A DNA stretch of 64,000 bases from Tubulanus polymorphus (lineage: Eukaryota; Animalia; Nemertea): the NCBI RefSeq assembly GCF_964204645.1, contig NC_134035.1:8278451-8342450 (forward strand), read 5' to 3'. Each line of letters starts with the position of its first letter. Position 1 is the first letter of the stretch. The notes under the pieces were generated by a model, which was given only the letters and a program-made list of their open reading frames with translations, was not told where the DNA came from and ran no database searches. Shown in pieces: positions 1-38,411 of this stretch. The position numbers and the translations under genes are program-made.

Positions 1-69
1 TTAAATCCATTTGATGATAAAAGGCATATTTTAGATGATGGTATAAAAACATTACCTTATGGCCATTAA
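1..69 (+). CDS. Protein-primed family B DNA polymerase (pPolB), C-terminal end only
   Basis: Frame 1 reads LNPFDDKRHILDDGIKTLPYGH*, matching the conserved Polinton pPolB C-terminal motif (DDKR...GxxTLPYGH). The stop at 67-69 overlaps the stop of the convergent ORF (TTAA at 66-69). Confidence 0.88.
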   Translation, partial: LNPFDDKRHILDDGIKTLPYGH

Positions 70-1367
70 AACATAAAATCAATATCATCAAACTCGAAAT
101 CACTATTGGCTTCTTCATTTTCATTTAATTGTTCAGGTTCTTCTTCAATTCCATTTTTCTCATTTAAATAAATTTCTATCTTGTTCCACATTTCATCTCG
201 CTCTCTTTGTTTCTTTTTGTTTGTTAATTCATCAAATGGAATTATAATATCTAGGTTTAAATAATTTACAATCTTATTTAAAAAGAATTCATAATTTATT
301 GAATCTGTTATTCTATTTTCCAAATGATACATTAATATTTGTTTAAATATTTTTTTTATATTTTCCATATCTTCTTCTGTTAATTTAGGTTTTTCATAAT
401 AATCGTTAAATAATAAATATAAATACATTTTCTTTTGTTTTGTGTTAAATGTTGACGGAATAATTGTTTTTATAATATCTTTTTTAGTTATTTCACCATT
501 TTTATTTTCTATTATTTTCATTTTTTCAAGCCATTGCATATATTCTGGTGTATGATCTTCTATAGAAAATATTTTAAAAATTTCATCTAGATAATTTAAT
601 TTTGGTTCTATGAGAAAATCTCTAGTTTTTTCTTCACCCCATAAATTCTTTTGCCATCCACATTCAACACAAAATAACACAGCACCTTCTTGTCTTAAGG
701 TCGCATAACTACATTGTGGGCATTTTCGTTTATAATTTATTGGTAATAGATCTTCATTAAGCTCTTGGTATTTTCTTACGTTTTCTTTATGTTTTATTGT
801 TCTATTATGTAGATTTGAATTACTTGTTGTAATAATCAATTTACAATATTTACAATAATATGTTTTTCTTGTTAATTCATTATATTGTTTTTCTAACTTT
901 TCAACTGTTTCTTTATTATCTGGTAACGTTTTCTCATATTTTATTTTTTCTAATAAATTATTTTTTCTTTCATTGAATTCAGTTTCAAATTTATTAGAAA
1001 TTTTATCTATATGTGCTTTACGAAATTGATGATTCTCCCAATCTTCTATATTTTCAGGGTTATATTTTATTCGACAAGGCTCACAGAAATGATCTTTTAT
1101 ATTATCCTTATCATAGAATAAGAAAGGTCTTTTCCAAATAACTTCAGGTTCAACTTCGGCAGATTTACTATCAACATTAGCCGTTGCGCCATTAATTCTA
1201 CACTTCTCTGAATGTTTTTTAACATAATTTCTTGAGAATAATTTATTACATTTTGGGCAGTTTATTTTAGGGGGTTTATAATTTTCATCATGTTTTTTCA
1301 TATGTCGAGCCATATTACTTTTTCTTAGAAGTTCACCACAAATTTCGCATGCTATCTTCTCATCCAT
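66..1367 (-). CDS. Multi-zinc-finger protein with a C-terminal VLTF3 (poxvirus/NCLDV late transcription factor 3)-like region
   Basis: N-terminal C2H2-type fingers (CEICG..RHMKKH; CKYC..HNRTIKH) and a Zn ribbon CPQC-x12-CVECG. The C-terminal segments KPKLTEEDMENIKKIFKQI and SINYEFFLNKIVNYLNL...QRERDEMWNKI resemble VLTF3 motifs (PPx..E..L..MF..IQ; FLSYSYVLYK..ELL...D.IWKKI). Recognised by eye. Confidence 0.65.
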   Translation of the reverse strand: MDEKIACEICGELLRKSNMARHMKKHDENYKPPKINCPKCNKLFSRNYVKKHSEKCRINGATANVDSKSAEVEPEVIWKRPFLFYDKDNIKDHFCEPCRIKYNPENIEDWENHQFRKAHIDKISNKFETEFNERKNNLLEKIKYEKTLPDNKETVEKLEKQYNELTRKTYYCKYCKLIITTSNSNLHNRTIKHKENVRKYQELNEDLLPINYKRKCPQCSYATLRQEGAVLFCVECGWQKNLWGEEKTRDFLIEPKLNYLDEIFKIFSIEDHTPEYMQWLEKMKIIENKNGEITKKDIIKTIIPSTFNTKQKKMYLYLLFNDYYEKPKLTEEDMENIKKIFKQILMYHLENRITDSINYEFFLNKIVNYLNLDIIIPFDELTNKKKQRERDEMWNKIEIYLNEKNGIEEEPEQLNENEEANSDFEFDDIDFMF

Positions 1368-1435
1368 TTATTAAGGAAAAATTTTATTAAAATTAATTTT
1401 TAGTGATGAGCGGTAATTTTTTTATGTTATAAATA

Positions 1436-2188
1436 ATGGTAGAATTAAAAGAATACAGAATATTTGTAGATTCTAGAAGGCTTACAAATTATAAATCTCA
1501 TAATTTATTAATACAATTAGATAGAGAATTTAAGAATTGTGTTGATTTAAAATTAGTAAATATTAGTTTATGTAATTCTTTTTACAATGTAACGGATAAA
1601 AGTCTTGAACATTTAATTTTTTCAATCTTTTATAAAAAAAGGAATAAATGGTTTTTTATATATTTAAAACCAGGATTATATAATTTAAATACATTAGCAC
1701 AAGAAATTAATAGAAAAGCTCGAGCTAAATTAGGAAGTGATTCTGGATTTAATATTAGAATTTTAAAAAGTGCTAGTTCTAATAAAATAAAGATTAGGTT
1801 AGACGAACAATTTAAATTTACAGTAAGAAAACCTTTAGGTAAACTGTTAGGAATTGCCCCTGATATTGTTACAGCATACGCAGAAGGTAAATCAAACTTA
1901 ATGCCTTTTACACATTTTTATATTTATTGTAATTTAATCGATCCTACAAAAACATTCGAAGCAACTAAAGATATAACTTGTAATTCTGGTTTACTAAACA
2001 TTTTACCATTGAAGAATGTTAAAGAATTTGGAACGCAAATAAATTATAATTTAACAGAATGTGATTTCAAACCTTGTATTCCTCAATTTAATAATTTTGA
2101 ATTAGAAATAAGAAATCATAATGGATACTTAATTGATTTGAATAACTTTCCTGTAATTTATGAATTAGTTATAAGATGTAAAGAGTAA
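1436..2188 (+). CDS. Minor capsid protein (penton, single jelly-roll)
   Basis: Motif pattern typical of Polinton/PLV pentons: IFVDSR, LVNISLCNSFYNV, PGLYN, LGKLLG, YIYCNLID, LLNILP..FG..INY, ELEIRNHNGYLIDLNNFPV. Confidence 0.75.
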   Translation: MVELKEYRIFVDSRRLTNYKSHNLLIQLDREFKNCVDLKLVNISLCNSFYNVTDKSLEHLIFSIFYKKRNKWFFIYLKPGLYNLNTLAQEINRKARAKLGSDSGFNIRILKSASSNKIKIRLDEQFKFTVRKPLGKLLGIAPDIVTAYAEGKSNLMPFTHFYIYCNLIDPTKTFEATKDITCNSGLLNILPLKNVKEFGTQINYNLTECDFKPCIPQFNNFELEIRNHNGYLIDLNNFPVIYELVIRCKE

Positions 2189-2204
2189 TTTTTCACCTAT
2201 ATAA

Positions 2205-2558
2205 ATGAATATAACTGTTGGACCGAGTATATGTTTTGGTTTTGATTTTAAACGTGAGAAAGAAATGAAATTTAACATTAATGATGTAATAACACATATC
2301 AAAAATATTACATTTTCTAATGAAACAACATTTGAGTATGAAACAACAATAGATAAAGAAACTTTTAATGTAGAAAAGATTACTAATTTAATTAGAGAAT
2401 CTTTAAGATTTTATGAATTAGATGAAGATTTTATCATCGATGATATTAAAAAAATAATAATTGAAATATATACAAATGAAACTAGTAATGAAATAAATGT
2501 TGAATTAATCATAAATAAGTTAACTAAATATTTTGATGATAGTAATTTTTTTGATTAA
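2205..2558 (+). CDS. Viral hypothetical protein (acidic, 117 aa)
   Basis: Intact ORF in the tightly packed array; starts in TATATAAATG. Confidence 0.7.
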   Translation: MNITVGPSICFGFDFKREKEMKFNINDVITHIKNITFSNETTFEYETTIDKETFNVEKITNLIRESLRFYELDEDFIIDDIKKIIIEIYTNETSNEINVELIINKLTKYFDDSNFFD

Positions 2559-2561
2559 TAA

Positions 2562-2783
2562 ATGAGTGATAATAAGTGGATAATAACTGGATTATATAAT
2601 GGAGCATTACTATCAGTTGGAACTGTTGGTTATTCAATGGTATTAAAAAAAGTATTCAAAATGGGAAGTGTTAATGTTGATAGATTTGATATAAATGATA
2701 TTTTAAAGTTAACGTTAGCAATTACTTTATCTAATTTAACAATTGATTATTTGGAAAAACAAAAATATATTCCTCCCATATAA
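2562..2783 (+). CDS. Small viral membrane-associated protein (73 aa)
   Basis: Two hydrophobic/amphipathic segments; TAAATG start. Confidence 0.7.
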   Translation: MSDNKWIITGLYNGALLSVGTVGYSMVLKKVFKMGSVNVDRFDINDILKLTLAITLSNLTIDYLEKQKYIPPI

Positions 2784-2807
2784 ATGCATAATTTTTTTGC
2801 TAAATAA

Positions 2808-3230
2808 ATGGCTTCTGCAATTATAACTATTATAGGATCGGCAATTGTTAACGCTTTAGCATTTACAGGTGGTGGTTATTTATTTAAACATATTGATAAA
2901 AATAGTTCATTAGGAGAACAAAGAAGACATAACTTAGCGTTAGAGAAATATAATAAAGATGCAGAAGAATATAGAGAAAAGAGACAAAACTATATGGATT
3001 ACATCAATAAAGAATTATATGATCAGAAGATTTCACATAGAGATTTTCAATCAGTCGATGATGCAATGAGTTTATATAACGCAGTAACAAATAAAGAAAA
3101 ATTACATCTATACAAACCTAAATTATCAGATTATTATTCCCCAAGTAAAGAACAACAGAAATATGAAATAATATGGATTTTAGGTGGAACAGTTATTGTT
3201 ATATTTATTGCTTATAAGTTTACTAATTAG
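2808..3230 (+). CDS. Viral membrane protein with N- and C-terminal hydrophobic helices and a central coiled coil
   Basis: MASAIITIIGSAIVNALAFTGGGYLF...EQRRHNLALEKY...IIWILGGTVIVIFIAY; TAAATG start. Confidence 0.75.
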   Translation: MASAIITIIGSAIVNALAFTGGGYLFKHIDKNSSLGEQRRHNLALEKYNKDAEEYREKRQNYMDYINKELYDQKISHRDFQSVDDAMSLYNAVTNKEKLHLYKPKLSDYYSPSKEQQKYEIIWILGGTVIVIFIAYKFTN

Positions 3231-3249
3231 TAATTTTTATTCTAAATAA

Positions 3250-3684
3250 ATGGAAGATAAAGTTGATAGTATTGATATTATTCCTCATGATATAAATAAA
3301 ACTAAATTAAAAACATATTTAGAAAAACAAATATTAGAATTTGAAAGTGACTTAAAGATAAAAAAGAAAAAATATTTAAAAAGTAAAATTATATATTATT
3401 TGATTATCAGTGGTTCGGTTACAATTAGTTCTGTAATAACATTTCTAGCAATATTCAGTCCATTAACACCTTTAGCTATATCAATTGGTGTATTAGGATT
3501 AAGTTCAAGTGTTTTAACTGGTATAAGTTCAAAATTAAATATAAAAAGTAATAAAGAAAAAATAAAATCTAATATAAAAGAAATTAATAAATTAAAGAAC
3601 ACACTAGATTATATAATAAGTTTAAATGGTCATATAACAGTTGAAGAACAAGATAAATTATTAAAAGAATTAATAAATTATTAA
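3250..3684 (+). CDS. Viral 2-TM membrane protein flanked by coiled coils
   Basis: Two adjacent hydrophobic helices (IIYYLIISGSVTISSVITFLAIF; LAISIGVLGLSSSVLTGI); a homologous relic lies at ~32880-33090. Confidence 0.75.
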   Translation: MEDKVDSIDIIPHDINKTKLKTYLEKQILEFESDLKIKKKKYLKSKIIYYLIISGSVTISSVITFLAIFSPLTPLAISIGVLGLSSSVLTGISSKLNIKSNKEKIKSNIKEINKLKNTLDYIISLNGHITVEEQDKLLKELINY

Positions 3685-3700
3685 TTTTTTAATTATATAA

Positions 3701-5089
3701 ATGGTAGATAGTTTTCCAAAAGCTTTCCGATATAATAAATCAATTAAATATAATATTCCAGCAATAGATTTTAATAAAGATATTACATATAGAAATGAAG
3801 TTTTAAATTCATTAATTGATTTATATATTTATGTTACTGAAACTAATAATTTTAATGCAAAGATGGAAAATATATTTCATGTATATTTAATTAATTTTAA
3901 AAAATTGAAAGATGAAAAACAATGGTTATTAAAATCTAATATGAAGTATTGGCAGAACCAATTAAATTTTGCTGTTTATTGTGCAACAACAGGATGTGGA
4001 ATAAGTTGGAATGATCATTTGAATAATTCTAAATATAAACTAATTCAAAGTTTATTTAGATTTCATACATACTTTCAAATCAGAATAATATTAAATGAAT
4101 TAGAGTGCGCTTTACCAGGATCTAGATATTTTAAAGAATTGGATAATAATATTAATTTATCTAAGTTTTATAAAATTTGCAATGAATTTAATATAGATAT
4201 AAATAATTCTGATTTTAGAATAAAAATTGGAACAATAAGATCACTTCCTTGCCCTAGAAAGATTGCAGAATATTGTGCACTTCCCATACCATCTAATAGT
4301 TTTTATAATATCTATAATAATAAATTAGGTTATGGTAAAATAGAAACAAAGGATTTAGAAACATTCAATTTCAATAAATTACCAAAATTTTATGATAATT
4401 TAAAACAAGAAAACAATAATGGTTGGGTATATTTTATTTTAGAGAATAGTGAAGGTTTTACTAAATCAGGTATAGAAAGAATAAATCAATCTATTAGAAC
4501 TTATTTGATTTGTATTTTAGGTGCGCAAGTTGAAACAAGATCCCCAATAATTGGAAATTTGAATACATCATTCGATACACAAAAACAATTTAAAGTTTTA
4601 TTTGAAGATTCAATTCATAATGATAAAAATAGATCGATTCCAGAAAACATTATAAGATATCAAAATTATTTAGATAAATCTCATGTAAGACTTAATTATT
4701 GTATAGGCCCTAATCTATTAATTATTTCTAATGATTTAGTATTAAAGATGGGAAATATAATTGGTTATAATAATCTAATTAAAACTGCAACAATAAATAA
4801 TTCATTTGGATTAAATGATATAAATAAAAAGATTATTACTGCTCCAAAATTAATGGAAGGTGAAAAAAATAAAAAACATATTCAATCAACAGAAACTAAA
4901 ACTAAGAATATTAAATTAAATAATGATTCTAAAACAAAAGATTACAATACATCAGAAAATATTAGAACTGATAATATTCAACATGATATAATTAAACTAA
5001 ATGATGATAATAAATCACATGAAAATACTAAATTAGCTATAACTTGTATAGGAATTGTTATAGGAGGAATATTATATTTTAAATTTTAA
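3701..5089 (+). CDS. Viral protein with a C-terminal TM anchor (462 aa)
   Basis: Intact ORF with the motif WQNQLNFAVYCATTGCGIS and C-terminal LAITCIGIVIGGILYF; a homologous relic lies at ~33090-34390. Confidence 0.8.
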   Translation: MVDSFPKAFRYNKSIKYNIPAIDFNKDITYRNEVLNSLIDLYIYVTETNNFNAKMENIFHVYLINFKKLKDEKQWLLKSNMKYWQNQLNFAVYCATTGCGISWNDHLNNSKYKLIQSLFRFHTYFQIRIILNELECALPGSRYFKELDNNINLSKFYKICNEFNIDINNSDFRIKIGTIRSLPCPRKIAEYCALPIPSNSFYNIYNNKLGYGKIETKDLETFNFNKLPKFYDNLKQENNNGWVYFILENSEGFTKSGIERINQSIRTYLICILGAQVETRSPIIGNLNTSFDTQKQFKVLFEDSIHNDKNRSIPENIIRYQNYLDKSHVRLNYCIGPNLLIISNDLVLKMGNIIGYNNLIKTATINNSFGLNDINKKIITAPKLMEGEKNKKHIQSTETKTKNIKLNNDSKTKDYNTSENIRTDNIQHDIIKLNDDNKSHENTKLAITCIGIVIGGILYFKF

Positions 5090-5105
5090 TTTTTTTATTA
5101 TATAA

Positions 5106-6536
5106 ATGGATGTAGAAGGTGGAGAAGATATTGGAATGGATCCTTTTGATGAACCTAACATAACTGATGAACAACCACCTGATTTTGATGAAACAAGTTT
5201 TAATGATGGTAATGAACCAGAATATAACAATAATTTAAATATGCCTGATTATATTAAAAATGCTGAATCACAATTAAATCCTGAAAATTTAGACCCAGAT
5301 TTAGTAAAACAAGATTTAGATAATTTAAACAAAATACCTAAATTAGAAGATTTAATTGAAAAATCTAATTTTAACATAAATGATGAAGACGTTGCACTTT
5401 TAGCAGATCAATTAAAATTTTTAGATAATGGTAAATGTTATTATCGTTTGAAAGGTGATTATTATATTGATGTCACTTATAAAAATAATAAAAATAAAAT
5501 ATTATCAGAATCAACTTTAGAAAAATTAAAACCAGATAGAATTAAAATAATAAGTAATAGTAATGAAATAACTGATGTTACACAAAAAGAAATAGATGAT
5601 AATATAGATGTATTTAAACAAAGAATTAATGAATTATTTGAAATAATCAAAAAGAAATCAGAAACAACTTCTGAACAGAATATAACTTCCAAAAATAGTA
5701 AACATAGATCAAATAAAGTTCCAATTGAAAAACTTTTACCGAATGGATTACTTGATGCAACAGATCAAGAATTAGAAGATTTAGATATATTTTCTGATAA
5801 AGCAATTAGAGAAATTATTAGTATAAGACTTGCATCTGATAAAATTGCACATAATAAAAGTATAAGAGATTTTAAAATTAGAACTTTAGAAAAAGAATTA
5901 ACTGATAAAAATAAAGAAATAGAACAACTAAAGTCTGATTTAGATCATCAAGTAATTGATGAAATAGAATATAGGCAAAAAGAATTACGTTTAGAAAAAG
6001 AAAAAGATGATTTAGAATATAACATAGAATTACAAAAAGAAGAAATTAAATTATTGTTAAAATCATATGATTATAATATTAATAGATTAAAAGTTATTTT
6101 TAAAGATTTGTTGATTAAACCAAATTCTGAAATATCACTAAAAGACAGAATAAGATTATTATTTAAATTAGAAGGAATAACAATTCTTTCAATTCTAACA
6201 GCTGTAACTATGTTATTTACAACAATTGGTTTAGCTATATCAAATGCTTTAAAATCTACTCCCACTCCCAATAAACCAGATAAACCTCCAGGCAATAATT
6301 CTATACAAGATAAAGTTAAGGATGGTTTAAAGAAATTAGCAAAATATTTATGGGAACTATCTAAAAAATCTGCTGCAGCTTTACCAGGAGTTATTGCTTC
6401 AATTGTTGGTTTTATATTGAAATCTGCAGGAAACATTATTAACTTTGCTGCTGAACATATTATTTTATTTTTAATTACAGTTGTAAGTGCTATTATTTTT
6501 GGGTTAGTAAATATGATATCAAAAAATATTAAGTAA
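5106..6536 (+). CDS. Viral coiled-coil membrane protein (476 aa)
   Basis: Acidic N-terminus, long heptad region, and 2-3 C-terminal hydrophobic helices with a Pro-rich linker (PTPNKPDKPP); a homologous relic lies at ~34406-35765. Confidence 0.8.
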   Translation: MDVEGGEDIGMDPFDEPNITDEQPPDFDETSFNDGNEPEYNNNLNMPDYIKNAESQLNPENLDPDLVKQDLDNLNKIPKLEDLIEKSNFNINDEDVALLADQLKFLDNGKCYYRLKGDYYIDVTYKNNKNKILSESTLEKLKPDRIKIISNSNEITDVTQKEIDDNIDVFKQRINELFEIIKKKSETTSEQNITSKNSKHRSNKVPIEKLLPNGLLDATDQELEDLDIFSDKAIREIISIRLASDKIAHNKSIRDFKIRTLEKELTDKNKEIEQLKSDLDHQVIDEIEYRQKELRLEKEKDDLEYNIELQKEEIKLLLKSYDYNINRLKVIFKDLLIKPNSEISLKDRIRLLFKLEGITILSILTAVTMLFTTIGLAISNALKSTPTPNKPDKPPGNNSIQDKVKDGLKKLAKYLWELSKKSAAALPGVIASIVGFILKSAGNIINFAAEHIILFLITVVSAIIFGLVNMISKNIK

Positions 6537-6577
6537 ACCATGATTAAAAATAAATAATTAATTTTTTTGTTAAATAA

Positions 6578-7825
6578 ATGAGTGGGAGTTATATAAGTCC
6601 TTCGAAGAATCATAGAATATCTAATGCTATTAAAGCAGAGAGATCACATCATATAATTACTCATAACCCTTCTAATATTAATCCCGATGAAACTTTATAC
6701 GTTAGAATCCCTCGATTAACACAAAATACTTTTTATGTTCCAAACAGTATTTATTTATCAGCCGATATAAAAGTAACTGGCCATGATAACAATTATGTTG
6801 TTGATAATGTTGGAAGATATTTGATTAAAAAGTTAACAATAAAGATTGGTCCGGAAACAGTTTTCTCATTAGATGATTATAATTTATTTATGCATTATAA
6901 AGATTTATGGTTAACTAAAGAAAATAGAAATAATATGATATTTCAAGGCATCCAATCGGAAAACCATAATAAATTAAGATCTGAAGCCAATAATGCAGTA
7001 GTAACTCGTGCCACAGATAATTTGATTAAAAAGATTTATGGAAGCAAATATAAAATTCCATTAGACTTTGAATTGATAAATAATAATGCACCTTTATATA
7101 AATACGCAATTCAAGAAGATATTATATTTGAGATAACATTTGCTCCTGTAAATGAAATTGTATTATCTAGCGTTGTTAAAGATATGGGTTATAAATTATC
7201 GAATATATGTTTAGAATATAACACAGTAACTAATGAAAATATTGCTAGCACAATTCAAACTCAATACAATCAAGGATTTTCATTATTATATGATTATATT
7301 GATAAATTTAAAACTGTAACTATTAATGCAAATGATGAAATAATTAATGAGAATATTAACTTTCCTAGAAGATCTATTAAAGGTATATTAATATTTTTTA
7401 CTATTGCAACATATTCTAATGGTGCAATAAATGTTGATAATTATTATAATCCTGAAATAACAAAAGTAGAAATAACTATCGAAGGTATAGCGAATAAAAT
7501 ATTTTGTCAAGGAATGAGAATGATTGATCAATGGCCAGAAATTAGAAAACATTTTATGAATGAAAAAGTGAAATCATTTGAAAATTGTAACATTAATCAA
7601 ATTGATTATTATACTGGTAATAAATATGCATTATGGTTAGATTTTAGAACAACTGAAGATAACTTATTACATGGTTCTGGAAAAAAACTACAAAATACAA
7701 AAGATGGAATACAATTATTCATGAAAAAGAATAAAGGAATCAAAAATTTTAAAATGCACATTTATATTATATCTGACGCGCAATTAAATATTGTAAATTC
7801 ACAATTAGATAGTATTCAATATTAG
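6578..7825 (+). CDS. Major capsid protein (probable double jelly-roll)
   Basis: 415 aa, beta-rich, adjacent to integrase and ATPase. Motifs NPSNINPDETLYVRIP, LIKKLTIKIG, YKIPLDF, YKLSNICLEY, INFPRRSIKGILIFF and YALWLDFRT...LHGSG resemble Polinton/PLV MCPs. Confidence 0.8.
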   Translation: MSGSYISPSKNHRISNAIKAERSHHIITHNPSNINPDETLYVRIPRLTQNTFYVPNSIYLSADIKVTGHDNNYVVDNVGRYLIKKLTIKIGPETVFSLDDYNLFMHYKDLWLTKENRNNMIFQGIQSENHNKLRSEANNAVVTRATDNLIKKIYGSKYKIPLDFELINNNAPLYKYAIQEDIIFEITFAPVNEIVLSSVVKDMGYKLSNICLEYNTVTNENIASTIQTQYNQGFSLLYDYIDKFKTVTINANDEIINENINFPRRSIKGILIFFTIATYSNGAINVDNYYNPEITKVEITIEGIANKIFCQGMRMIDQWPEIRKHFMNEKVKSFENCNINQIDYYTGNKYALWLDFRTTEDNLLHGSGKKLQNTKDGIQLFMKKNKGIKNFKMHIYIISDAQLNIVNSQLDSIQY

Positions 7826-7855
7826 AAATATAAAGTTAAAATTAAGCGTATATAA

Positions 7856-8983
7856 ATGGGAGGTAAAAAATCTCCTAATACTAAAGAACAATATTTAAGA
7901 AATTTATATTACAACCCTGAGAGTTCGGTTGCTTATTCTTCTACTAAAAATATATGGCGTAAAGTAAAACAAGATAAATTAGATAAGATAATCCCACACA
8001 ATTTAATTAAATATAAAGATATAAATGAATTTATGTTAGAACAACCAACGTATACAACACATAAAAAAATTGTTAGAAAATATGAAACTCGTAAAACTAT
8101 GGTAAGTTATGTAGATCAACAGTGGCAAGGAGATTTAATTGATATGAAAAATGTTAAGAAAGATAATGATGATTATTGGTGGTTATTGAATATAATTGAT
8201 ATTTTTAGTCGTTATGTATGGAGTTTCCCACTTTATAGAAAAGATGCTGTACAAACATCAAATGTTTTAAGAAAATTTCTTTCGGATGATAAACTAAAAC
8301 CAGAAAAAATACAATTTGATGATGGAAAAGAATTTGATAATTCACTTGTTCATGAACTCTTAGATAATCATAATATTAAATATTTTTCAACAAAATCAGA
8401 TAAAAAAGCAGCAGTTGTTGAACGATTTAATAGAACATTAAGAACAAGAATGTGGAAATATTTTACAGCAAATAATACTTTTAAATGGATTGATGTTATA
8501 CCAAAATTGATAGAAGGATATAATAATTCTTATCATTCTTCTATTGGAATGAAACCTATTGATGCTAGAAAATCTGAAAATGCTGAAATTGTTTGGAATA
8601 ATTTATATGGAGCATTTCTTATAGATGATTTTGGTGAACCTAAATTTAAAGTTGGTCAAAATGTTAGAATTTCTAAGTATAAAAAGATATTTGATAAAGG
8701 ATACGATCGAAATTTTACTAGAGAAATATATAGAATAAAAAAGGTAATAACAACAAAACCATATGTCTATAAATTAGAAGATTTAGATGGTGAAGAAGTT
8801 GATGGCTACTTTTACGAAGAAGAATTAAGTTTAACTACTGAAAATCTAGAACAAGAATATAAAATTGAAAAAGTATTAAAAACAAAAACTATTAAAAGAA
8901 AAAAATATTCTTTAGTAAAATGGGTTGGATGGCCAGATAAATTTAATGAATGGATATTATCAAGTAAAATTAAAAATATATAA
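7856..8983 (+). CDS. Retroviral-type (rve) DDE integrase with C-terminal chromodomain
   Basis: WQGDLID, IDIFSRY, QFDDGKEF and VERFNRTLR (DDE triad intact), YNNSYHSSIGMKP, and the chromodomain YKIEKVL..YSLVKWVGWPDKFNEWI. Confidence 0.95.
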   Translation: MGGKKSPNTKEQYLRNLYYNPESSVAYSSTKNIWRKVKQDKLDKIIPHNLIKYKDINEFMLEQPTYTTHKKIVRKYETRKTMVSYVDQQWQGDLIDMKNVKKDNDDYWWLLNIIDIFSRYVWSFPLYRKDAVQTSNVLRKFLSDDKLKPEKIQFDDGKEFDNSLVHELLDNHNIKYFSTKSDKKAAVVERFNRTLRTRMWKYFTANNTFKWIDVIPKLIEGYNNSYHSSIGMKPIDARKSENAEIVWNNLYGAFLIDDFGEPKFKVGQNVRISKYKKIFDKGYDRNFTREIYRIKKVITTKPYVYKLEDLDGEEVDGYFYEEELSLTTENLEQEYKIEKVLKTKTIKRKKYSLVKWVGWPDKFNEWILSSKIKNI

Positions 8984-9592
8984 ATGAATAAGGAATTATT
9001 CATATTTGAGCCTCATAATATGTTAATTTCTGGTGTAACAAATTGTGGAAAAACTTATTTTATATTACATTTATTAGAAACTGTTTATGAAAACTATTTT
9101 GATAATATAGTATTATTTTGTCCAACATATGAATTTAATCAAACTTATGATAGAAATATTACTAGGAATAATAAATTTATTATATTAGATCCTAAAACAG
9201 TAAAAGAAAATTTAGATAATTGTATTAAAATAGCAATTGATATTTATAAAGGATCAAATACATTATTTATCATAGATGATTGTGCAAATTTACATGATTC
9301 TAAAATTAGAGAAAGTGAGTTATGTTATTTAGCTTTCTCTGGGAGACATTTTGGGATAACAACTTGGGTTTTAAATCAAAAATATAATTCAATTGTTAAA
9401 GACTTTAGAGAAAACATTAGATTTCTAGTTTTATTCTACAATAAAGATAGAAAATCAATGAAAAATGCACTTGAGGAAAATGATATTATTCCACATGATT
9501 TACATAATGAATATATGGATGAGTTGAAAAATATTAAAAGATCAAAATTACTATTTAGATTACAACACCCATTTAAATATGAATTTATTTAA
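8984..9592 (+). CDS. A32/FtsK-HerA family genome-packaging ATPase
   Basis: Walker A GVTNCGKT, Walker B FIIDD, GRH motif, downstream Q and REN; abuts the integrase stop (TAAATG). Confidence 0.92.
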   Translation: MNKELFIFEPHNMLISGVTNCGKTYFILHLLETVYENYFDNIVLFCPTYEFNQTYDRNITRNNKFIILDPKTVKENLDNCIKIAIDIYKGSNTLFIIDDCANLHDSKIRESELCYLAFSGRHFGITTWVLNQKYNSIVKDFRENIRFLVLFYNKDRKSMKNALEENDIIPHDLHNEYMDELKNIKRSKLLFRLQHPFKYEFI

Positions 9593-9595
9593 ATT

Positions 9596-9845
9596 CAATT
9601 AGTTTGTTAATCTAGTTGAATTCTAGTTATTGGTAGTTGTAACAAAAATCAAATAGATTTAACAATATTTTAACTAGCTTGTTAATCTATTTTAATTCTA
9701 GTTACATTCTAATTGAATTCTAGTTGTTAATAGTTGAAACAAAAAATCAACTAAATTTAACAAGAAATAAATAAAAACAACAATATTTCAACTAGCTTGT
9801 TAATCTAGTTGAATTCTAGTTACATTCTAGTTAAATTCTAGTTGC
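9596..9845. repeat. Intergenic imperfect repeat array inside the viral element
   Basis: Reiterated ~11-bp unit TTCTAGTT(GAA/ACA) nested in ~120-bp repeats (AACAATATTTyAACTAGCTTGTTAATCTA at ~9661 and ~9779); no ORF. Confidence 0.8.
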
Positions 9846-9877
9846 AACATCACACAATTAATTTTTTTGTTATATAA

Positions 9878-10483
9878 ATGGTAGGTGAAAAGAAAATAAA
9901 ATCTAAAAATGGTGATGTTCCAATTGAAAAAACTTTAGATAATTTAGGAATAACAGAAACAAAATTAACTCCAGATGATGGTGCTTTAAATAATGTTACA
10001 ACAAATAATAATTATGAATATTATCTTTATTGTAAACATCAATTAGAAATATTAATAGCATCTGGAAAATGTAAAAATTTTGTCGGTAAAAATTTAACTT
10101 ATAATGAATTAGACACAATGAAATCAGATGAAATTATTAAATTATTTAAGATTTATGAAGCCGCGAGAACAGCTAGAATTAATGACGCGATATCAGAAAA
10201 AGTAGTAAAAGGTTATAGTAAATTATGTAATTATATACTACCAATTGAAGATGAAAATAGATTATATTCCGATTTAAAAAATGATTATTTAGTTATGACT
10301 GAATTAAATAAATGGATTGGATATTTATCATTTCAATTAGGTGGATTTATGACATTATTATCAACTGGAGTTATAACATTTTCAAATATTGAAAGTAAAA
10401 ATATTTCTATAATAAATGAGCGAGGTGAAAGAAGTGAAGGAATTACCTGTGAAGAAAAAACCGAGAACTCAGAAACAAATTGA
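9878..10483 (+). CDS. Viral hypothetical protein (201 aa, hydrophobic segment near the C-terminus)
   Basis: Intact ORF with TATATAAATG start. Confidence 0.75.
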   Translation: MVGEKKIKSKNGDVPIEKTLDNLGITETKLTPDDGALNNVTTNNNYEYYLYCKHQLEILIASGKCKNFVGKNLTYNELDTMKSDEIIKLFKIYEAARTARINDAISEKVVKGYSKLCNYILPIEDENRLYSDLKNDYLVMTELNKWIGYLSFQLGGFMTLLSTGVITFSNIESKNISIINERGERSEGITCEEKTENSETN

Positions 10484-10793
10484 ATGGTCTCGGCAATTAG
10501 GAATTAAATCACAAGAATATAAAAAAGCTGTAAAAGAAAAAATAAGTAATAAAAATGTTAATAAAAATGGTGAAAATATTGTTATTTCTACTCCTTCTAA
10601 TGATAGAATATTTGATAAATGTCTATATTTTACAGTTGGATTTGTAATTGTATTCATTTTGATTGGGTGTAATTGGTATAAGAAATCAAATAAAATTCAT
10701 GATATTAATAATTCTGAACCAACTGCTATCAAAAATGAAAGTACTTCTGAAATTCCAAAAATTGATAATAAAAAAAATGGATTAATATTTTAG
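10416..10793 (+). CDS. Viral single-pass membrane protein with a basic N-terminus
   Basis: KKKPRTQKQIEW followed by the TM CLYFTVGFVIVFILIGC; the ATAAATG start lies inside the upstream ORF. Confidence 0.7.
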   Translation: MSEVKEVKELPVKKKPRTQKQIEWSRQLGIKSQEYKKAVKEKISNKNVNKNGENIVISTPSNDRIFDKCLYFTVGFVIVFILIGCNWYKKSNKIHDINNSEPTAIKNESTSEIPKIDNKKNGLIF

Positions 10794-10949
10794 AAAAAAA
10801 GCAAAAAAAAATAATTTTTTTAAATTAATTGAATATTAATTGAATATCTCACTACTTTTGTCTATCTATGTGGAGCAATTAAATTGTCCAGATAAGTCAT
10901 TTCGGATTCTAGATATTCATTATTTTTATTAATTTATTTTTTTTAAAAT

Positions 10950-11276
10950 TTAATCAACAATTTCTAAATCATGATGACCGTCTTCATTTTTTCCATGATA
11001 TATTATTTTAAATCCTACTAAATCTTTCAATTCCTCCGTACTCAATGAAACCCATTTATCGGGTAAAAACACTTTAAATTCTCGCGATGTACTAACATTA
11101 CAGTAGCTTAAATTAGCTGATACTTTCTCTCCATATTTAGTTTTTATCTTTTCTAATTTCAATATTTTATGTTCAATTTCTTTTGTAACATCAACTAACT
11201 TTTTTATTTCAAATTGTTTTTTTGCTGGTTTTATTCTGTTATTTATTGTTGCTAAGAATGCTTTTCTATCTCCCAT
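10950..11276 (-). CDS. Small viral protein, possible OB-fold ssDNA-binding protein
   Basis: KILKLEKIKTKYGEKV...FKVFLPDKW...IIYHGK beta-strand pattern; TATAAATG start next to the terminal repeat. The fold is an inference. Confidence 0.6.
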   Translation of the reverse strand: MGDRKAFLATINNRIKPAKKQFEIKKLVDVTKEIEHKILKLEKIKTKYGEKVSANLSYCNVSTSREFKVFLPDKWVSLSTEELKDLVGFKIIYHGKNEDGHHDLEIVD

Positions 11277-11281
11277 TTATA

Positions 11282-11412
11282 AGGAAAAAAAATTACTTGT
11301 GGTGATGAGTAGGAAAAAAAAAATTACTTGTGGTGATGAGTGGTGTCTCGTCCTCTCGTCCTCTGATCTGAAACCCTACTTTTCTAATTACTAATTTGGG
11401 TTTAAGACTACT
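11282..11412. repeat. Right terminal (inverted) repeat region of the element, with a ~30-bp direct duplication
   Basis: AGGAAAAAAAATTACTTGTGGTGATGAGT x2, CTCGTCCT x2, ending in ACTACT. The reverse complement of ~11330-11395 aligns to ~38412-38475. Confidence 0.8.
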
Positions 11413-11585
11413 AGAGACCCTGCAGTGCAAGTCATCAGGCTGTACTTAGAAATTGGATACCGGCAACGCTACTGAAGGGAGCGAGAACTCAGCGGACCCA
11501 TTAAGGCAATGGGCGCCATGTGCTTGTGCCATTGCGCAATGCATTAAACTTTTCTTATATCCTTAGATTTTGTTATTGATTTCAG

Positions 11586-12406: not shown

Positions 12407-15400
12407 TCAACGCGAGGTGGCGCACACCTTGTAATGATAGAAGGGTTTTGCGATCATGCCGTGGGTTCTATCCAGCGGTGGAAGCGCTTCGTTCTTCGGG
12501 TTTTCGAAGTTGAACAACTGCAGCAGACGCGTGAAGAACAAGAACATTTCCATTCTCGCCAAGCCTTCTCCCAAACAAGCTCGTTTACCTAATAATAGTA
12601 ATACAATATACATTGAATTTACTTCTTTCGATATTACATCGCTTGAGATCGTGGTCACGTGATATTGTAGAAATATTCAAGATTTTCTACCAGTAGACGC
12701 CACAAGTTACATAGTTAAAAGATATTCTAGCTAGTTTTGGCAAAGTATGTGGCTATAAACTGTCCATATGTATATTAAAAGTTTTTTCTTCATGAAATAG
12801 GGGATTGTCAATCTTATTTATCTGATTGAGTGCCTAATTTTGATTTGATATGATTTGAATTCTGTGTCCCTTTACAAACCCACCACACCCACCACACCCA
12901 CCACACCGAGGCAGGAGGTTTTAATCGATAGGTCAAAAACTTTGGATTGAAAAATTTGCATTCTCATTCGATGGATGTTTCGTCGCTTTTATTTAAGATA
13001 GACCTACCGACGCAGAAGGCGATCATGTTTTGCGTGTTGGTAAGCTTGCCGTTCTCGTCGAGGAAGTTTTCGGGATCGAAATCGTTCGGCCGTTTGAACA
13101 GGGCCGGGTCTCTGTGCGCCGCGTAAATGTTGCCGAACACGAAGGCGTTTTTCGGAATCGTGTACCCTCGGAACGTGACGTCGCGTTCCGTATTCGTGTG
13201 CGGTATCGCCATCGAGACGATCGACGAATGCCGGAAGATTTCGTTGATGACGGCGTCCGTGTACGGCAGACTGGTGCGGTCGCGTCCGGTCGGCACTCGC
13301 TCGCGTCCGATTACTTCGTCGATTTCGGCTTGAACCTTTCTCTGTATGTCCGGGAAGTGCATCATATACAGGATACCCCAGCGAAGAGAGGTGGCCGTCG
13401 TCTCAGATCCAGCGATAAACATGTCGTAGATCATCCAATTTAACTGGGCCTCTGAAAAAGTGATCGTAGTATGATGATAATTGGAGGGTTGTGGAGGAGC
13501 CGTGTTAACCTGATGTCGAATCGGTAAAATGCAATGTGACAAAATTGCTTTCGAAACTTCGACCAGGTCGAAACGTCGAATCAATGAATTATTAGTTATA
13601 AAGGAAACTTTTCGGACTCATCGTTCTCGTTTTATTAGTGTCGGATTCTCTATATATCGTCACAACACGGAGAACATAGCGTTTTACCATTGTTTATGTA
13701 CATTGATGGCTAACCTGATTTCATCAAAAGAACGACCTTTCGCTACTAGAGTATCTTTGATGAAGCTATAAACTCGAAAGCGCGTACCTTTATCAACATT
13801 AAGTTAACCTCCAAAAAGCCATTCTTTGCGTTAACCGATGATAATTGGTTACTTCGATAAAATCGATGGACCACTATCTGTACGTGCTGTCGAGATACTA
13901 TGGAAATCTCACCCTAAGATTTAAAACAGTCAGAAATGTTTCCTTGAGCTCATAATTCATTCATATTTCGACTATATCCTGATGTATATTCATCCTCTGG
14001 ACCCAGTTCCACAGTGTTCCGAGTTAAGATTTCGATTTGACTCCGAGTTAAAACATTGAAAATGAATTAGCAACTCAGAGTTAACTCTAACTCACAACTG
14101 TGGAACCGAACCCTGGTCATGAAGGGCAGTGTATTATTTCTATAGGCACCCCTCATTTCAATAGTTCTAAAAAAATCGGGCACCACTAAAACTAATGTGT
14201 CTGATGGTTTGGATAAAGTTGCATAAAGGTAAAAACAACTGAAAGTACATCAGACCTCAGGACACACTGGTTTAACAAACAACGGTAATAGAAAGATAAG
14301 ATTTACTAGATGTTAAGGTCTTAACTGATATGCGACTAGATAATAGAAATATCACGATCAGTTTGACAAGATAAAGAGAACCTCCAGCTTTCCTTGTCAA
14401 ATGGTATTGTCAATACCATTCCGCATTATTTCATTGTTAATTCTTGTCTACTTGAAACGAGGCGTAGGCCTGAACGTTGTCCCTAAATTCTAGAATTCAT
14501 AAGCGAAGGTCAATACTTAGTTTCCTAAAGATAATTTGATCAACCTTTTTGGTTTATCTACAAACCTGTAAACGTGCTGTCCGGTTTGTCGGCAGTGCGG
14601 GCGATCTCAGCCAAATAAGCGTCGATGAAATCACGAATTTCATTCCCGTCGAACGTGCGCTTGTGTTCTTCGACGACCTTCTTCAAGAAGGCGCCCACGT
14701 GGTGATAGTTGGTGTGGATGATTTTCTCCGTCGAAGTCTGAATCGGCAGATACTGCAGGACCTTGAAGTGGTGCAACGGCGACGTGATGGACGCTGCGCG
14801 CACGTTTTCCTCGAAGCGGTCCTGCAAGTCGATGAATTCGGCGTTCGTGTACTCGTACCTCTGCCCGAGCGCGGTTTGACACATGACGTTAGCGACGGCC
14901 ACGTTGATGATTTTTTCGAGGTCGTACGGTTTACCGTTATGTTTGCGAATGTCTTCGACGACGTACTCGAGCTCTTCGCGGATGTTTTCGTCCATTTTCA
15001 TTTTTCCCATGCCGAAATTTCTGAGCACGGTCAGGGCAAAACGGCGCTGGTCTTTCCACAGGCTGCCGTCCGATGCCAACACACCTGTAACGCAAAATAG
15101 ATTGTAAATATGTAAGATTATTAGTGATTAGTGAGTTTTCGGGCTAGCAAAGCAAAGAATGGCATGGCATGGCATGGCATAGCATAGCCTAGCATATAGC
15201 ATAGAATGGAGCATAGCATAGAGTATACCATAGAATAGAGGATTGCTTAAAGTAAAGGATAGAGTAGAGCATAGAGTAAAGGATAGCTAGAATATAGTAT
15301 AGCATTGCATTAAGATAGAATAGAGTATAGCATAGCATAGCATAGCATAGCATAAGTATATTCTATGATTTTTTTATATGTCTCTATCACAGACCTGTGA

Positions 15401-16134
15401 TACTTACCGTTTCCTTGCGTAAGAACCCGTTTGAAATACAAATCAGGACGGGCGGTTAGCTCGTCACCGGCGAAAGCTTCCTTTATCATATCTTGTTTCA
15501 GTAGGAATACCATTACGTTGCTTCCCACTTTCAAACTGATGATATCCGAACCGAGTTGCTTCGAAAGCTTCATGACATATTTGGTCATATCGGGCTCTGG
15601 ATAAAAAATTGAACATTAAGTTATTTGAGAATTAGGCCTTACCGAATACACGTTCTCTCTATCATTGCCACCGCCCGACGATAGGCAAAACCACAAGTTA
15701 CTAAACCGTAATCTGTATCTGTTTTTAGGGCAGACTATATATTTAATTTTACTTGCAGAACCTGAGTGGAAAACTGTGTGGTGGGCTTAATGTCTCTTTA
15801 CGTCAGCTTAACATTCAATAAGTTGCTAGACTAACTTCAGGGGAGTTTTCGCTGGTTTTTAGTCGTTTATTGAAGTATTTTACCGGCTTCAAAACATCTA
15901 TTCTGCGTAGGCTTGTTCACTCATGAATATTTTATTGTAATAGAAGAAAAAAGCGATGAAATTTCGATGTATCGACTCACCAACTTGCAACATGTTTCCA
16001 ATGATCGGCCATCCTTTGATGGTTGGAGGTAGACCGGATTTACCGCCACCCAGTATCAGATAGACTACCAGTACAGCTAGCACACACGCGAGAACAATTT
16101 GAGAATGTTCGACTATGAGCTCCAAGAGGGCCAT
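12407..16134 (-). CDS. Cytochrome P450, CYP2 clan (5 exons, ~495 aa)
   Basis: Exons 16134-15981, 15596-15408, 15084-14566, 13451-13008 and 12588-12407, all GT-AG and in frame (1488 nt). Signal anchor, [23 protein letters not shown] and the heme motif [11 protein letters not shown]. Confidence 0.95.
13997..14115. mobile_element. Short Harbinger-like MITE
   Basis: Imperfect TIRs (GACCCAGTTCCACAG...CTGTGGAACCGAACC) flanked by CTG; a related copy lies at ~58390-58497. Confidence 0.6.
15160..15355. repeat. Degenerate pentanucleotide microsatellite (GCATA/AGAGT) in CYP intron 2
   Basis: Directly visible. Confidence 0.85.
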
Positions 16135-32535: not shown

Positions 32536-32877
32536 TTCAACTTTATTTTCCCTCGAATTACAACACATATTATATACATACAAAGTTATATAAAAGAATA
32601 TAAGGTATGTTATATATTAGTGTCATCATGGCCGCATAGACCAGTGTTAAGCTCTAGTCTATACGTCCATGGTGATTTTCATGTTGTAAAGGCTGGCTTA
32701 TGTCGACAAGCAACGCGACGCCTACCGACTCCTACCGACGCAACTGAGAGCAACCGCGATCGCAGCCCACCTTATGTCGACTGCGCTCCGATTCGCAGCA
32801 ACTGAGGCCGACTAGCGGGATATGAGATCCTCCCAATTGCTTCCCTGCTTATGTCGGTTGCGATTACTAGCGTAAAA

Positions 32878-35790
32878 TAAATTTGGAAAAACAAATATTA
32901 GAATTTGAAAATGAATTGAAAATCTTAAAAAAATTCTTTAAAAAGCAAAATTATATATTATTTTATTATCAGTGGTTCGGTTGAAATTAGTTCTGTAATA
33001 ACATTTTTAGCAATATTCTCACCATTAACACCTTAAGCTATATCAATTGGCGTGCTGGGATTAAGTTCTAGTGTATTGACTGGCGTAAATTCATTAATTA
33101 ATTCATTAATTAATTTAGATATTTATGTTACTGAAACTTATAATTTTGTAATAATGTAAAGATGGAAAATATATTTCATGTATACTTAATTAATTTAAAA
33201 AAATTTAAAGATGAAAAGCAATGGTTGTTAAAATCTAATATGAAGTATTGACAAAACCAATTAAATTTTGCAGTTTATTGAGCAAGAACAGGATGTGGAA
33301 ATAGTTGGAATGATCATTTAAATAATTCAAAATATAAATTAATGCAAAGTTTTTTTGGATTTCATACTTATTTTCAAATTAGATTTATATTAAATGAATT
33401 AGAATGTCCTTTACCAGGATCTAGATATTTTAAAGAATTAGATAATAATATTAATTTATCAAAGTTTTATAAAGTTTGTAATGAATTTAATATAAATATA
33501 AATAATTTTGATTTTCGAACAAAAATTGGAACAATTGGATCAATTCCTTGTCCTGAAAATATTTCACAAAATTGCACACTTCCCATACCATCTTATTGTT
33601 TTTATAATAGCTATAATAATAAATTAGGTCATGGTAAAATAGAAAATATGGATTTAAAAACATTAAATTTCAACAAATTACCGAAATTTTATGATAATTT
33701 AAAACAAGAAAATAATAATGGTTGGGTTCATTTTACTTTAGAAAATAGAGAAGGTTTTACAAAATAAGGTTTACAACGAATAAATCAATCTATTAGAATA
33801 TATTTGATTTGTATATTAGGATAACAGGTTGAAACAAGATCCCCAATAATTGGAAATTTAAATACATCATTTGATACACAAAGACAATTCAAAGTATGAT
33901 TTGAAGATTCAATTCATAATGATAAAAAATAGATCAATTCCAGACAATATATAAGATATCAAAATTATTTAGATAAATCTCATGTAAGATTAAATTATAG
34001 AAAAGGTCCTAATTTATTAATTATTTCTGATGATATAATTTTTTAAATGGGAAATATGATTGGTTATAATAATTTAATCAAGACTGCAACAATAAATAAT
34101 TCATTTGGATTAAATGATATAAATAAAAAAGTTATCATTGCTTCAAAACTAATGGAAGGTGAAAAAATTAAAAAAAATTATGCAATCAACAGAAACTAAA
34201 ACAAAGAATATTAAATTAAATAATGATTCTAAAATAAAAGATTATAATACATCAGAAAATATAAAAACTGATATTATTCAGCATGAAATAATTTAAAGTA
34301 ATAATGATGATAAATCACATGAAAATATCAAATGAGCTATAAATTGTATAGGAATTGTAATAGGAGGAATATTATATTTTACATTTTAATCTTCATAAGA
34401 TATAAATGGATGTAGAAGGTGGAGAAGATATTCCAATGGATACTTTTGATGAACCCGGTATAACCGATGAACAACAACCTGATTTTACTGATACAAGTTT
34501 GAGTAACGATAATGAAACAGCATATGATTCTAATCAGCAAGACCTGATACTAATGAATATGTTAATAAAGCACGTTCAAGATTGAATATTGAAAATATAA
34601 ATCCAGGACTAGAAAAAAAGAATTAGAATATGATGAATTAATTGAAAAATTTAAACCAATATTAAAAAAATCTCGATTCAATATAACTAATAAAGGTATG
34701 ATTTATTAAGTAAAAGATTTGAAATATTCAAATGGTGATTATCATTGGCATTTGAAAGATGACTATTATTTTAAGATATCTTGATAAAGTCTTGATAAAA
34801 TAATAAGTTAAAAGTCTTGATAAAATGATATCAAAACCAACTTTAATTAAATTAGAACAATCTTGAATTAGGAAAATCAATAATGATGTTATAACTGATG
34901 TTACTGAACAAGAGATAACACTAAATAAAAGAGAATTTAATCGAAGAAATGATGATTTTTTGAAGATAATTAATGAAGATTTAGAACCAGAAACAATTCC
35001 TAAAGAAGTTGTTAATTCCAATACTAGTAAACTTAAATCAAGAAGATTTCAATCTGAAAACAATTTACAGAATGGATTTTCTGACGCAACAAAAATTAGA
35101 AGATCTAAATATATTTTCTGATAAAGCAATTAGAGAAATAATATGTATAAGAAATGAAGCTCATAAAATTGCGCACGATAAAATGATTAGATATCAAAAT
35201 GATTACTTAAGAAGATGAATTATCTACAGCAAATGAAGAATTAAAACAATCAAAATCAGATTTAGATCATCAAGTAATTGATGCAATTGAATAAAAAATC
35301 ATATGATTATAATATTAATAGATTAAAAGTTATCTTTAGAGATTTGTTGATAAAACCAAATTCTAAAGTATCATTGAAAGATGGAATTAAATTATTATTT
35401 AAATTAGAAGGTATCACAATTCTTTCAATTCTAACAGCTGTAACTATGATATTTACAACAATAGGTTTAGCTATATCAAATTCATTAAAACCTACACCGA
35501 ATCCTAATAAACCAGATAAACCTCAGTCATAAAAGTCATAATTCTAAACAGGATAAAGCTAAAGATGGTTTGAAAAAGTAAGCAAAATATTTATGGGAAT
35601 TATCTAAAAAATCTGCTGCAGCTTTACCCGGAGTTACAGCATCAATAATATTGTTGGTTTTGTTTTAAATCTGCTGGAAATATCATTAGCTTTGCTGCTG
35701 AACATATAATTTTATTTTTAATTACAGTTGTGCTGTGCAATTATTTTTGGATTAGTGAATATGATAAAAAAATAAATAATTAATTTTTTT
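32878..35790 (+). pseudogene. Decayed copy of the Polinton membrane-gene block (homologous to ~3315-6570)
   Basis: Long near-identical nucleotide stretches to ORFs 3250, 3701 and 5106, with in-frame stops (e.g. TATTGA for TATTGG at ~33247), frameshifts and internal deletions (near 33090 and 35283). Retains TATAAATG at the start of the 5106 homologue (~34406). Confidence 0.93.
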
Positions 35791-35799
35791 CTTAAAAGT

Positions 35800-38078: not shown

Positions 38079-38410
38079 TTATGGCAGTGTCACGTGTTCT
38101 ACATTTACGGTTTTCACACCAACGCATTCCTCACTTCGCAAATTTTCTCTACAGTTTGCCGTGACGTGCCCTGGTTCATTGCATCGGAAACACAACACCG
38201 ATTGGCTATTTCCAGGTCTTACGCGACCACGAGATGGAAGATGTGTCGAGTTAACTCTCAAAACACGATTCTCTTCCAAATTGTCCGATTGACTGGTCTC
38301 TTCATAATCATGCAATGCGACTTTGAATTCAGCCAAAGACACGGTCTTTTCTCTTTGATCGATGGTGGTATAGAACAGTTTGAATTCGACGGGCAAGCTT
38401 TTAGTTATCA
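38079..38410 (-). mobile_element. Ty1/copia-like gag fragment
   Basis: KSLPVEFKLF...SLAEFKVALHDYEE and the zinc knuckle CFRCNEPGHVTANC; no LTRs seen. Confidence 0.7.
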
Positions 38411-38411
38411 T

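Follow-up and report, generated by a model that had tools for sequence, protein, structure and literature searches.

A Polinton-type element with poxvirus-late-type TAAATG promoters encodes a VLTF3 homologue extended by four zinc fingers

Whether Polintons are autonomous or helper-dependent has been called an open question (PMC5499653). VLTF3, a late transcription factor of poxviruses (vaccinia A2L; PF04947 and PF08792), has already been reported in polintoviruses of stony corals (PMC11131425) and also in Zephyrvirus VC123/VC126 and Polintoviricetes-related maps (bioRxiv 10.64898/2026.06.19.733378), and for MELD viruses with other replicases it is mentioned, in the accessible text, only in a legend (PMC8502044). 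We analyzed a 64,000-nucleotide stretch of DNA (contig NC_134035.1, positions 8,278,451 to 8,342,450; hereafter the window), the first 11.4 kb of which is, judged by its gene content, the right part of a Polinton/Maverick inside an animal genome. The gene at 66..1367 encodes a VLTF3 homologue, and what appears to be new here is a conserved four-finger extension on a Polinton VLTF3 together with poxvirus-late-type promoters, VLTF3 in Polintons being itself known. Krupovic and Koonin are also said to have treated VLTF3 in polintoviruses in 2016.

In the coral polintoviruses and in Zephyrvirus, as here, a VLTF3 homologue is an accessory gene of a Polinton or a Polinton-like virus (PLV), but the accessible texts describe no finger fusion, link to TAAATG, domain architecture or promoter analysis. 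Virophages and PLVs share promoters with their helpers (bioRxiv 10.1101/2022.07.28.501842; 10.1101/2025.10.09.676808), and Sputnik, mavirus/EMALEs and Gezel-14T resemble the present element in having a promoter motif in common with a large DNA virus, a sign of transcription dependence; they have protist hosts and Imitervirales helpers, however, whereas the window element has an animal host, a poxvirus-late motif and a late factor of its own. PLVs packaged with entomopoxviruses, in occlusion bodies, have been described (Barth et al., PMC11296320), in a main text that contains nothing on VLTF, promoters or TAAAT. Mriyaviruses (PMC11253617) are alike in their small genomes, in VLTF3 and in the lack of an RNA polymerase, but differ by VLTF2, a HUH endonuclease, the lack of a DNA polymerase and their placement in Nucleocytoviricota; the statement in that paper that no homologues of VLTF2/3 were detected beyond the phylum is contradicted by the window gene and by the coral polintoviruses (PMC11131425). 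In vaccinia late promoters TAAAT(G) lies over the start codon, and the 10th nucleotide upstream is a conserved T (PMC11980589; PMC5294985). No report of a poxvirus-type promoter in Polintons or of a zinc-finger VLTF3 in Mavericks was found in the literature, mostly non-subscription main texts, and the supplements of PMC11131425 and PMC11296320 may bear on this.

The VLTF3 gene and the parts of its product are as follows:

66..1367, minus strand: VLTF3 (A2-like) gene, intact, 433 aa, with four zinc fingers, a zinc ribbon, a helical domain and an acidic tail
1290..1349, minus strand: finger 1 (residues 7-26), C-x2-C-x11-H-x3-H, a weak zf-C2H2 match below cut-off
1200..1259, minus strand: finger 2 (residues 37-56), C-x2-C-x11-H-x3-C (C2HC), a tandem pair with finger 1
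1011..1085, minus strand: finger 3 (residues 95-119), C-x2-C-x14-H-x5-H, JAZ/matrin type
789..854, minus strand: finger 4 (residues 172-193), C-x2-C-x11-H-x5-H, U1/matrin type
660..722, minus strand: C4 zinc ribbon (residues 216-236), CxxC-x13-CxxC
156..623, minus strand: helical VLTF3 core (residues 249-404), by Pfam PF04947, Foldseek against BFVD and alignment to yeast TFIIB

The gene is a homologue of VLTF3 (poxvirus A2 family), as profile, embedding, sequence and fold searches showed. This homology had been proposed in a first-pass annotation made from the letters alone, and the three C-terminal motifs quoted there were found in the order given in the intact open reading frame (ORF). Residues 203-403 matched Pfam Pox_VLTF3 (PF04947) with an E-value of 2.2e-5 and 24.7 bits, 0.3 bit short of the cut-off of 25; the whole 433-aa protein gave no Pox_VLTF3 match at E<=1. 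Of 30 feature matches in the ESM Atlas, 27 carried PF04947 (top score 0.96), and for some of these VLTF3 clusters the commonest phylum was Preplasmiviricota. A HMMER search of 1.84 billion representative proteins returned five matches, P0002-P0006, three of which were 50% (P0002), 39% (P0003) and, over part of the length, 40% (P0004) identical to the window protein. P0006 is a ribbon-repeat protein and was rejected as spurious. P0005 (E 2.9e-5 among the 1.84 billion proteins) is a bona fide VLTF3, with 87 bits in Pfam plus an A2L ribbon, and is 63% identical to the VLTF3 of L077, a 232-kb contig that looks entomopoxvirus-like by its gene content. A profile built from the three fingered proteins scored 49 bits for P0005 and 30 and 35 bits for the VLTF3s of two further contigs, L001 and L002, compared to 8.2 bits for the best of 900 shuffles. 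Pairwise, the window protein scored 40.4 bits against the L077 VLTF3 and 33.5 bits against an Imitervirales-type VLTF3; its identity to known VLTF3s was 20-24%. Word-index searches for homologues of the whole protein and of its C-terminal half found nothing, and it was the full HMMER search that succeeded. Among viral contigs, the C-terminal half retrieved only two giant-virus contigs with ordinary VLTF3s.

Both cysteines of the first ribbon knuckle were invariant in all 19 aligned rows, and the ribbon cysteines and core residues were retained across homologues of 34-46% identity. The ribbon had been annotated as CxxC-x12-CxxCG; a ribbon is indeed present, but with a spacing of x13, which is also that of P0005. 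The PF08792 (A2L_zn_ribbon) model gave no score on it. Compared to poxvirus VLTF3, the window protein has the ribbon followed by the helical core, with conserved residues and order and (as in P0005) the same ribbon spacing, but it is only about 20-25% identical, carries about 205 extra N-terminal residues with the four fingers and an acidic tail, and is encoded by an integrating element, and the surroundings of its gene showed no homologue of RNA polymerase, A1 or G8.

A structure model computed from the 19-row alignment had a mean pLDDT of 70.4 and a pTM of 0.40; the single-sequence fold was poor (pLDDT 41.8) and was not used for fold searches. Foldseek against viral models (BFVD) ranked cowpox VLTF3 first (E 1.1e-6), the model alignment having itself included VLTF3 rows, and 10 of the 18 matches at E<=0.001 were named VLTF3 or late transcription factor, with entomopoxvirus VLTF3s at ranks 6 and 15. 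Foldseek against the PDB gave nothing at E<=0.001, the weak rows being poxvirus Rap94, TFIIB and C2H2 arrays. VIA-align over 911 chains placed yeast TFIIB at ranks 1-3 and BRF2, archaeal TFB and cyclins below it; the best yeast TFIIB alignment (Z 7.5, root-mean-square deviation 3.3) covered 90 residues between model positions 250 and 405, that is, one repeat. A sequence search of solved structures yielded only weak Rpb12 ribbon matches (E>=0.012), no TFIIB match and no solved VLTF3 structure. The modelled ribbon-plus-helical part bears a moderate likeness to TFIIB: as in TFIIB/TFB/BRF, an N-terminal zinc ribbon precedes a cyclin-like helical domain, although there is no sequence match and one cyclin repeat was aligned instead of two.

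Several C2H2 fingers had been annotated in the N-terminal half. Four fingers are present, but not of the canonical type: finger 2 is C2HC, two are of the U1/JAZ type, and none of the four has the Kruppel spacing C-x2-C-x12-H-x3-H or a zf-C2H2 score above cut-off. Finger 4 matched Pfam zf-U1 (E 1e-6, 28.9 bits, cut-off 22), the counterpart of finger 3 in P0003 exceeded the zf-C2H2_jaz cut-off, and fingers 1-2 weakly resembled tandem C2H2 arrays in Foldseek (about 60 columns, E about 0.1-1). Successive fingers are separated by 10, 38 and 52 residues, a long helical hairpin being predicted in the model between fingers 3 and 4; this is not a sequence-specific Kruppel-type array of tandem fingers joined by TGEKP-type linkers. 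When the finger half was used as the Atlas query, all leads scored below 0.9. Since the four fingers are kept in P0002 and P0003, two distant homologue clusters, the fusion to VLTF3 is, on these alignments, a stable architecture. Binding to RNA, or to duplexes with no base readout, is typical of fingers of the U1/JAZ type; the finger 1-2 pair could bind DNA.

It had also been suggested that the fingers provide sequence specificity and recognize CTCATCAC. We found no support for this, because two of the fingers are of the U1/JAZ type and because CTCATCAC is absent beside the orthologue in L003, a metagenomic Polinton with a capsid 76% identical to that of the window, which ends in the N-terminus of a P0002/P0008-type orthologue located at a different position in the element. 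CTCATCAC occurs in three copies in the window element, upstream of the VLTF3 gene and of a 108-aa terminal gene, and once more in a second terminal copy. As a conserved target of the fingers it is unsupported, being found in 8 of 77 loci and not in L003; from its placement it looks like a duplicated terminal segment. Other U1-type finger genes, lacking a VLTF3 domain, directly follow the capsid gene in L004 (2461-3684) and L006 (2287-3117), so such fingers appear to be mobile in this clade. The longest contig for both P0004, a VLTF3-like protein without fingers, and P0033, a capsid of 54% identity, has 12,994 bases; should the two lie on one element, as they may, a sister clade would have an unfused VLTF3.

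The annotation's further claim, that the genes of the element have TAAATG promoters, held for 13 of the 14 plausible genes, in which TAAATG overlaps the start codon. In the 14th (1436), TAAATA immediately precedes the ATG, and the L003 orthologue of this gene starts with TAAATG. As TAA precedes only 38 of the element's 414 ATGs (9.2%), the binomial probability of 13 in 14 is about 4e-13. The hexamer is not enriched in the window as a whole (98 observed compared to 85.8 +/- 9.3), and the signal is therefore positional. The VLTF3 gene has a promoter of the same type:

1365..1410, minus strand: promoter of the VLTF3 gene, with TAAATG overlapping the ATG, a T tract upstream of it and CTCATCAC at 1403-1410

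This stretch resembles the right-end region of the element, and the VLTF3 gene and the 108-aa terminal gene have a common promoter form, CTCATCAC...TTTTTCCTTA-TAAATG.

Relatives were fetched by capsid alignment (57 metagenomic loci and 3 loci from metagenome-assembled genomes (MAGs), 61 sequences with the window). Five of the 61 had no complete ORF of at least 100 aa, and the other 56 were split at a threshold of 50%. TAAATG starts were found in 114 of 129 ORFs in 34 positive loci (window included) and in 1 of 99 in 22 negative loci; the threshold sharpens this split, yet loci rich in ORFs were nearly all-or-none. On the capsid tree (36 of 59 rows, those with matches of at least 220 residues) the trait needs three changes, and positive clades extend down to 31% identity. 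Of 109 start sites, 79, 71 and 72% had T at 9, 10 and 11 nt, respectively, upstream of TAAAT, compared to 31-38% of 169 other TAAATG sites; the loci are related, and p-values for this peak overstate their independence. At position -3, T was found in 89% of the ORFs of positive loci, whereas negative loci had a purine in 66%. With TAAAT(G/A) over the start and a T-rich element about 10 nt upstream, the promoters of the element are built like poxvirus late promoters. In L077, TAAATG starts 3 of 8 genes, including its VLTF3.

Other origins of the motif were considered. A stop-start junction was rejected, the TAA being the stop codon of the upstream gene in 4 of 114 cases, as was an effect of composition, there being negative loci at 29-31% GC and positive ones at 38-44%. 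Avoidance of the poxvirus early terminator TTTTTNT in coding strands was rejected as non-specific: the word is depleted (z -4.7), but A runs are depleted equally or more, and of the four groups of positive relatives two lack the depletion. The coding strands of the window do not avoid AATAAA (54 compared to about 47 expected; 5.7 per kb). Six TAAATG-negative Polintons (L016, L017, L018, L019, L020 and L036) are nested among the positive clades, and inspection by eye often showed a word resembling TATA/TATAG a few bases upstream of the ATG, which may represent a different promoter class and a different helper. Late promoters of African swine fever virus use TATA at the initiation region (PMC5294985).

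For transcription the element likely depends on machinery borrowed from a co-infecting virus of the poxvirus type. As no RNA polymerase gene was found in the visible 11.4 kb, its promoters would be read by the RNA polymerase of this helper. The protein would act as a TFIIB-like initiation factor, the ribbon docking on the helper polymerase and the helical domain helping to open the promoter. Because the promoter of the VLTF3 gene is itself of the late type, the gene cannot start the cascade alone; factors of the helper would do so, and the protein would act as an amplifier or compete with the helper's A2 and would not be the trigger. The fingers probably tether it to nucleic acid, fingers 3-4 to RNA or to duplexes without base reading and fingers 1-2 possibly to DNA. 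That the factor amplifies transcription of the element by the helper's RNA polymerase is the reading we tentatively favour. Helper dependence in some form is, in our judgement, probable, as it is common to this reading and to two of the alternatives considered below, in which the gene is an uncoupled accessory or encodes a decoy.

A number of observations weigh against this proposal. Neither a helper virus nor transcripts, start sites or binding were observed; coverage by one possible RNA run extended to 1 of 30 bins, which gives no evidence on expression. The Pox_VLTF3 score in Pfam is slightly below cut-off, a 14-row VLTF3 tree with two outside lineages (in which the Polinton label of P0003 and P0004 is an assumption) cannot fix a poxvirus origin, and Pfam recognized no A1/VLTF2 or G8/VLTF1 homologue in the visible part of the element. 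Eleven of the 19 rows behind the model are Imitervirales-type VLTF3s, so that the fold searches are not fully independent and may be biased, and the Z of 7.5 for TFIIB is within the range common to helical arrangements. The one relative that retains the 5′ end of the orthologue, L003, lacks CTCATCAC. Of the 34 loci with the motif, only 2 showed a VLTF3 (the window and, by its finger end, L003), only three other Polinton-like VLTF3 clusters were found in the representative search, and the motif spans capsids of 31-76% identity. Finally, the presence of VLTF3 does not imply a helper, since it is retained in mriyaviruses, which have no RNA polymerase and are considered nuclear (PMC11253617).

The rarity of the gene bears on a reading in which the helper's own late factors serve the TAAATG promoters, and the fingered VLTF3 was captured by one sub-lineage and modulates transcription at most. 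The motif looks more widespread than the gene, which leans weakly in this direction: it is clade-wide with its three changes on the 36-row tree, whereas the fingered gene occurs in only three clusters of the representative library, window protein included, at positions that differ between the window and L003. Close relatives carry other finger genes at varied positions, and the coral polintoviruses have patchy accessory genes, VLTF3 included (PMC11131425). A six-frame VLTF3 profile search of 62 loci found no further member (the next best, E 0.0055 and 14.5 bits, was treated as noise), and PF04947 was found in none of the three MAGs behind L060-L062. However, around the capsid gene the sequences of the 33 motif-positive relatives are on average about 3.7 kb long, too short to show that VLTF3 is absent, and short contigs together with divergence can explain its rarity; moreover, the gene is intact, with conserved ribbon cysteines and core residues. 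We regard this reading as unlikely.

A role without any helper, in which the protein would substitute for TFIIB with host RNA polymerase II and TBP, an arrangement presumed for small Nucleocytoviricota that lack an RNA polymerase, and TAAATG would serve as its initiator, appears similarly improbable. It would agree with the cellular TFIIB chains found as the best structural matches, with the integrated and multi-copy state of the element (11,767 contigs of one run, at >=85% identity) and with the mriyaviruses, which encode VLTF2/3 but lack an RNA polymerase of their own and are inferred to be nuclear (PMC11253617). On the other hand, the promoter of the gene belongs to the very class that the protein would have to activate, AATAAA is not depleted in coding strands (5.7 per kb), and the T tract lies at the vaccinia spacing. 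A start on the ATG, with T at -3, would also leave no 5′ untranslated region unless a poly(A) leader were added, and 5′ poly(A) leader addition is a behaviour of poxvirus polymerases. A protein acting mainly as an inhibitor, by blocking the helper's polymerase or late complex or by sequestering double-stranded RNA with its U1/JAZ-type fingers, is the least likely, since a general block would also silence the genes of the element, which have promoters of that type as well, although the strong divergence from known VLTF3s (20-24% identity), the added fingers and acidic tail, and the reported inhibition of giant viruses by their PLVs would suit it.

Returning to amplification of helper-driven transcription, a wider form of the proposal is possible but doubtful: a large branch of animal Polintons would be endogenous virophages of poxvirus-type viruses, equipped with poxvirus late promoters, to which this lineage, surpassing known virophages, would add a finger-tethered TFIIB-like late factor of its own that turns the helper RNA polymerase to the genes of the parasite, with sister branches that have other upstream motifs using other machinery. 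A poxvirus-type late promoter on almost all genes that switches between clades, combined with an element-encoded late factor, offers a direct test of helper dependence and names the likely helper group. If true, virophage-like antiviral biology would be extended from protists to animal genomes, and the element would provide a small system for working out the role of VLTF3.

The Polinton context given in the first-pass annotation was borne out by the genes beside the VLTF3 gene; a Pfam profile search of the window proteins identified the Polinton hallmarks rve integrase, A32 ATPase and, with a weak match, double jelly-roll capsid protein. The remaining features of the element are:

1..69, plus strand: probable C-terminus of the Polinton protein-primed DNA polymerase, 22 residues, tail to tail with the VLTF3 gene
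1436..2188, plus strand: 250-aa gene, putatively the penton, the sole gene with TAAATA in place of TAAATG
6578..7825, plus strand: major capsid protein, weak Capsid_N match (E 0.01), 764 homologues, TAAATG start
7856..8983, plus strand: retroviral-type integrase with chromodomain, Pfam rve (E 2.8e-10), TAAATG start
8984..9592, plus strand: A32-like packaging ATPase, Pfam Pox_A32 (E 9e-13), TAAATG start
10950..11276, minus strand: conserved 108-aa gene beside the terminus, 73% identical to a gene in L003 (L003 125-466)
11274..11413, no strand: right terminal region, with two repeats that carry CTCATCAC, the element probably ending in ACTACT

The probable polymerase C-terminus at 1..69 is assigned by a motif like that at the C-terminus of pPolB. 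The 108-aa protein matched no family or solved structure in Pfam, sequence and structure searches; its TKYG...VFLP pattern may resemble that of small OB-fold single-strand binding proteins, for which the searches likewise found nothing. None of seven proteins had a PHROGs match. The GC content of the first 11.4 kb is 22-24%, compared to about 35-42% across most of the remainder, and climbs to about 40% past the right terminal region; the left end of the element lies outside the window. Two contig runs, possibly both from the window's own source, were compared: the 11,767 contigs of the first align to 1-10800 and indicate a multi-copy family, and in the second a contig of 1,238 bases covers most of the VLTF3 gene. 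Queries of viral contigs with the capsid, ATPase, integrase, VLTF3 alignment and capsid alignment gave no usable Polinton loci.

Beside the finger-VLTF3 gene and divergently oriented to it, L003 encodes a deoxynucleoside kinase (10340-10981, minus strand; Pfam dNK, E 1.7e-31), a nucleotide-supply gene unusual for a Polinton that would suit cytoplasmic replication. Polinton capsid genes in bacterial genome bins or records (L060-L062 and P0055) probably represent contamination with host DNA.

Further into the window, a degraded second copy of part of the element lies at 32874-35796; it is 81-86% identical to 3310-6574, and its counterparts of the 3701 and 5106 genes are interrupted by stop codons and frameshifts. 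The right-end region recurs in inverted orientation, with about 78-85% identity, at 38410-38509 and 39282-39512, and a 76-aa ORF near this copy resembles, by a motif, a piece of a Polinton polymerase. Host cytochrome P450 exons were located at 12964-15588 on the minus strand (Pfam E 8e-51 for one exon) and, by inspection, an ORF resembling a G-protein-coupled receptor at 36545-37489 on the plus strand; it is because of these genes beside the element that the surroundings are assigned to an animal genome. A tandem repeat at 40983-41571 has frames open on both strands.

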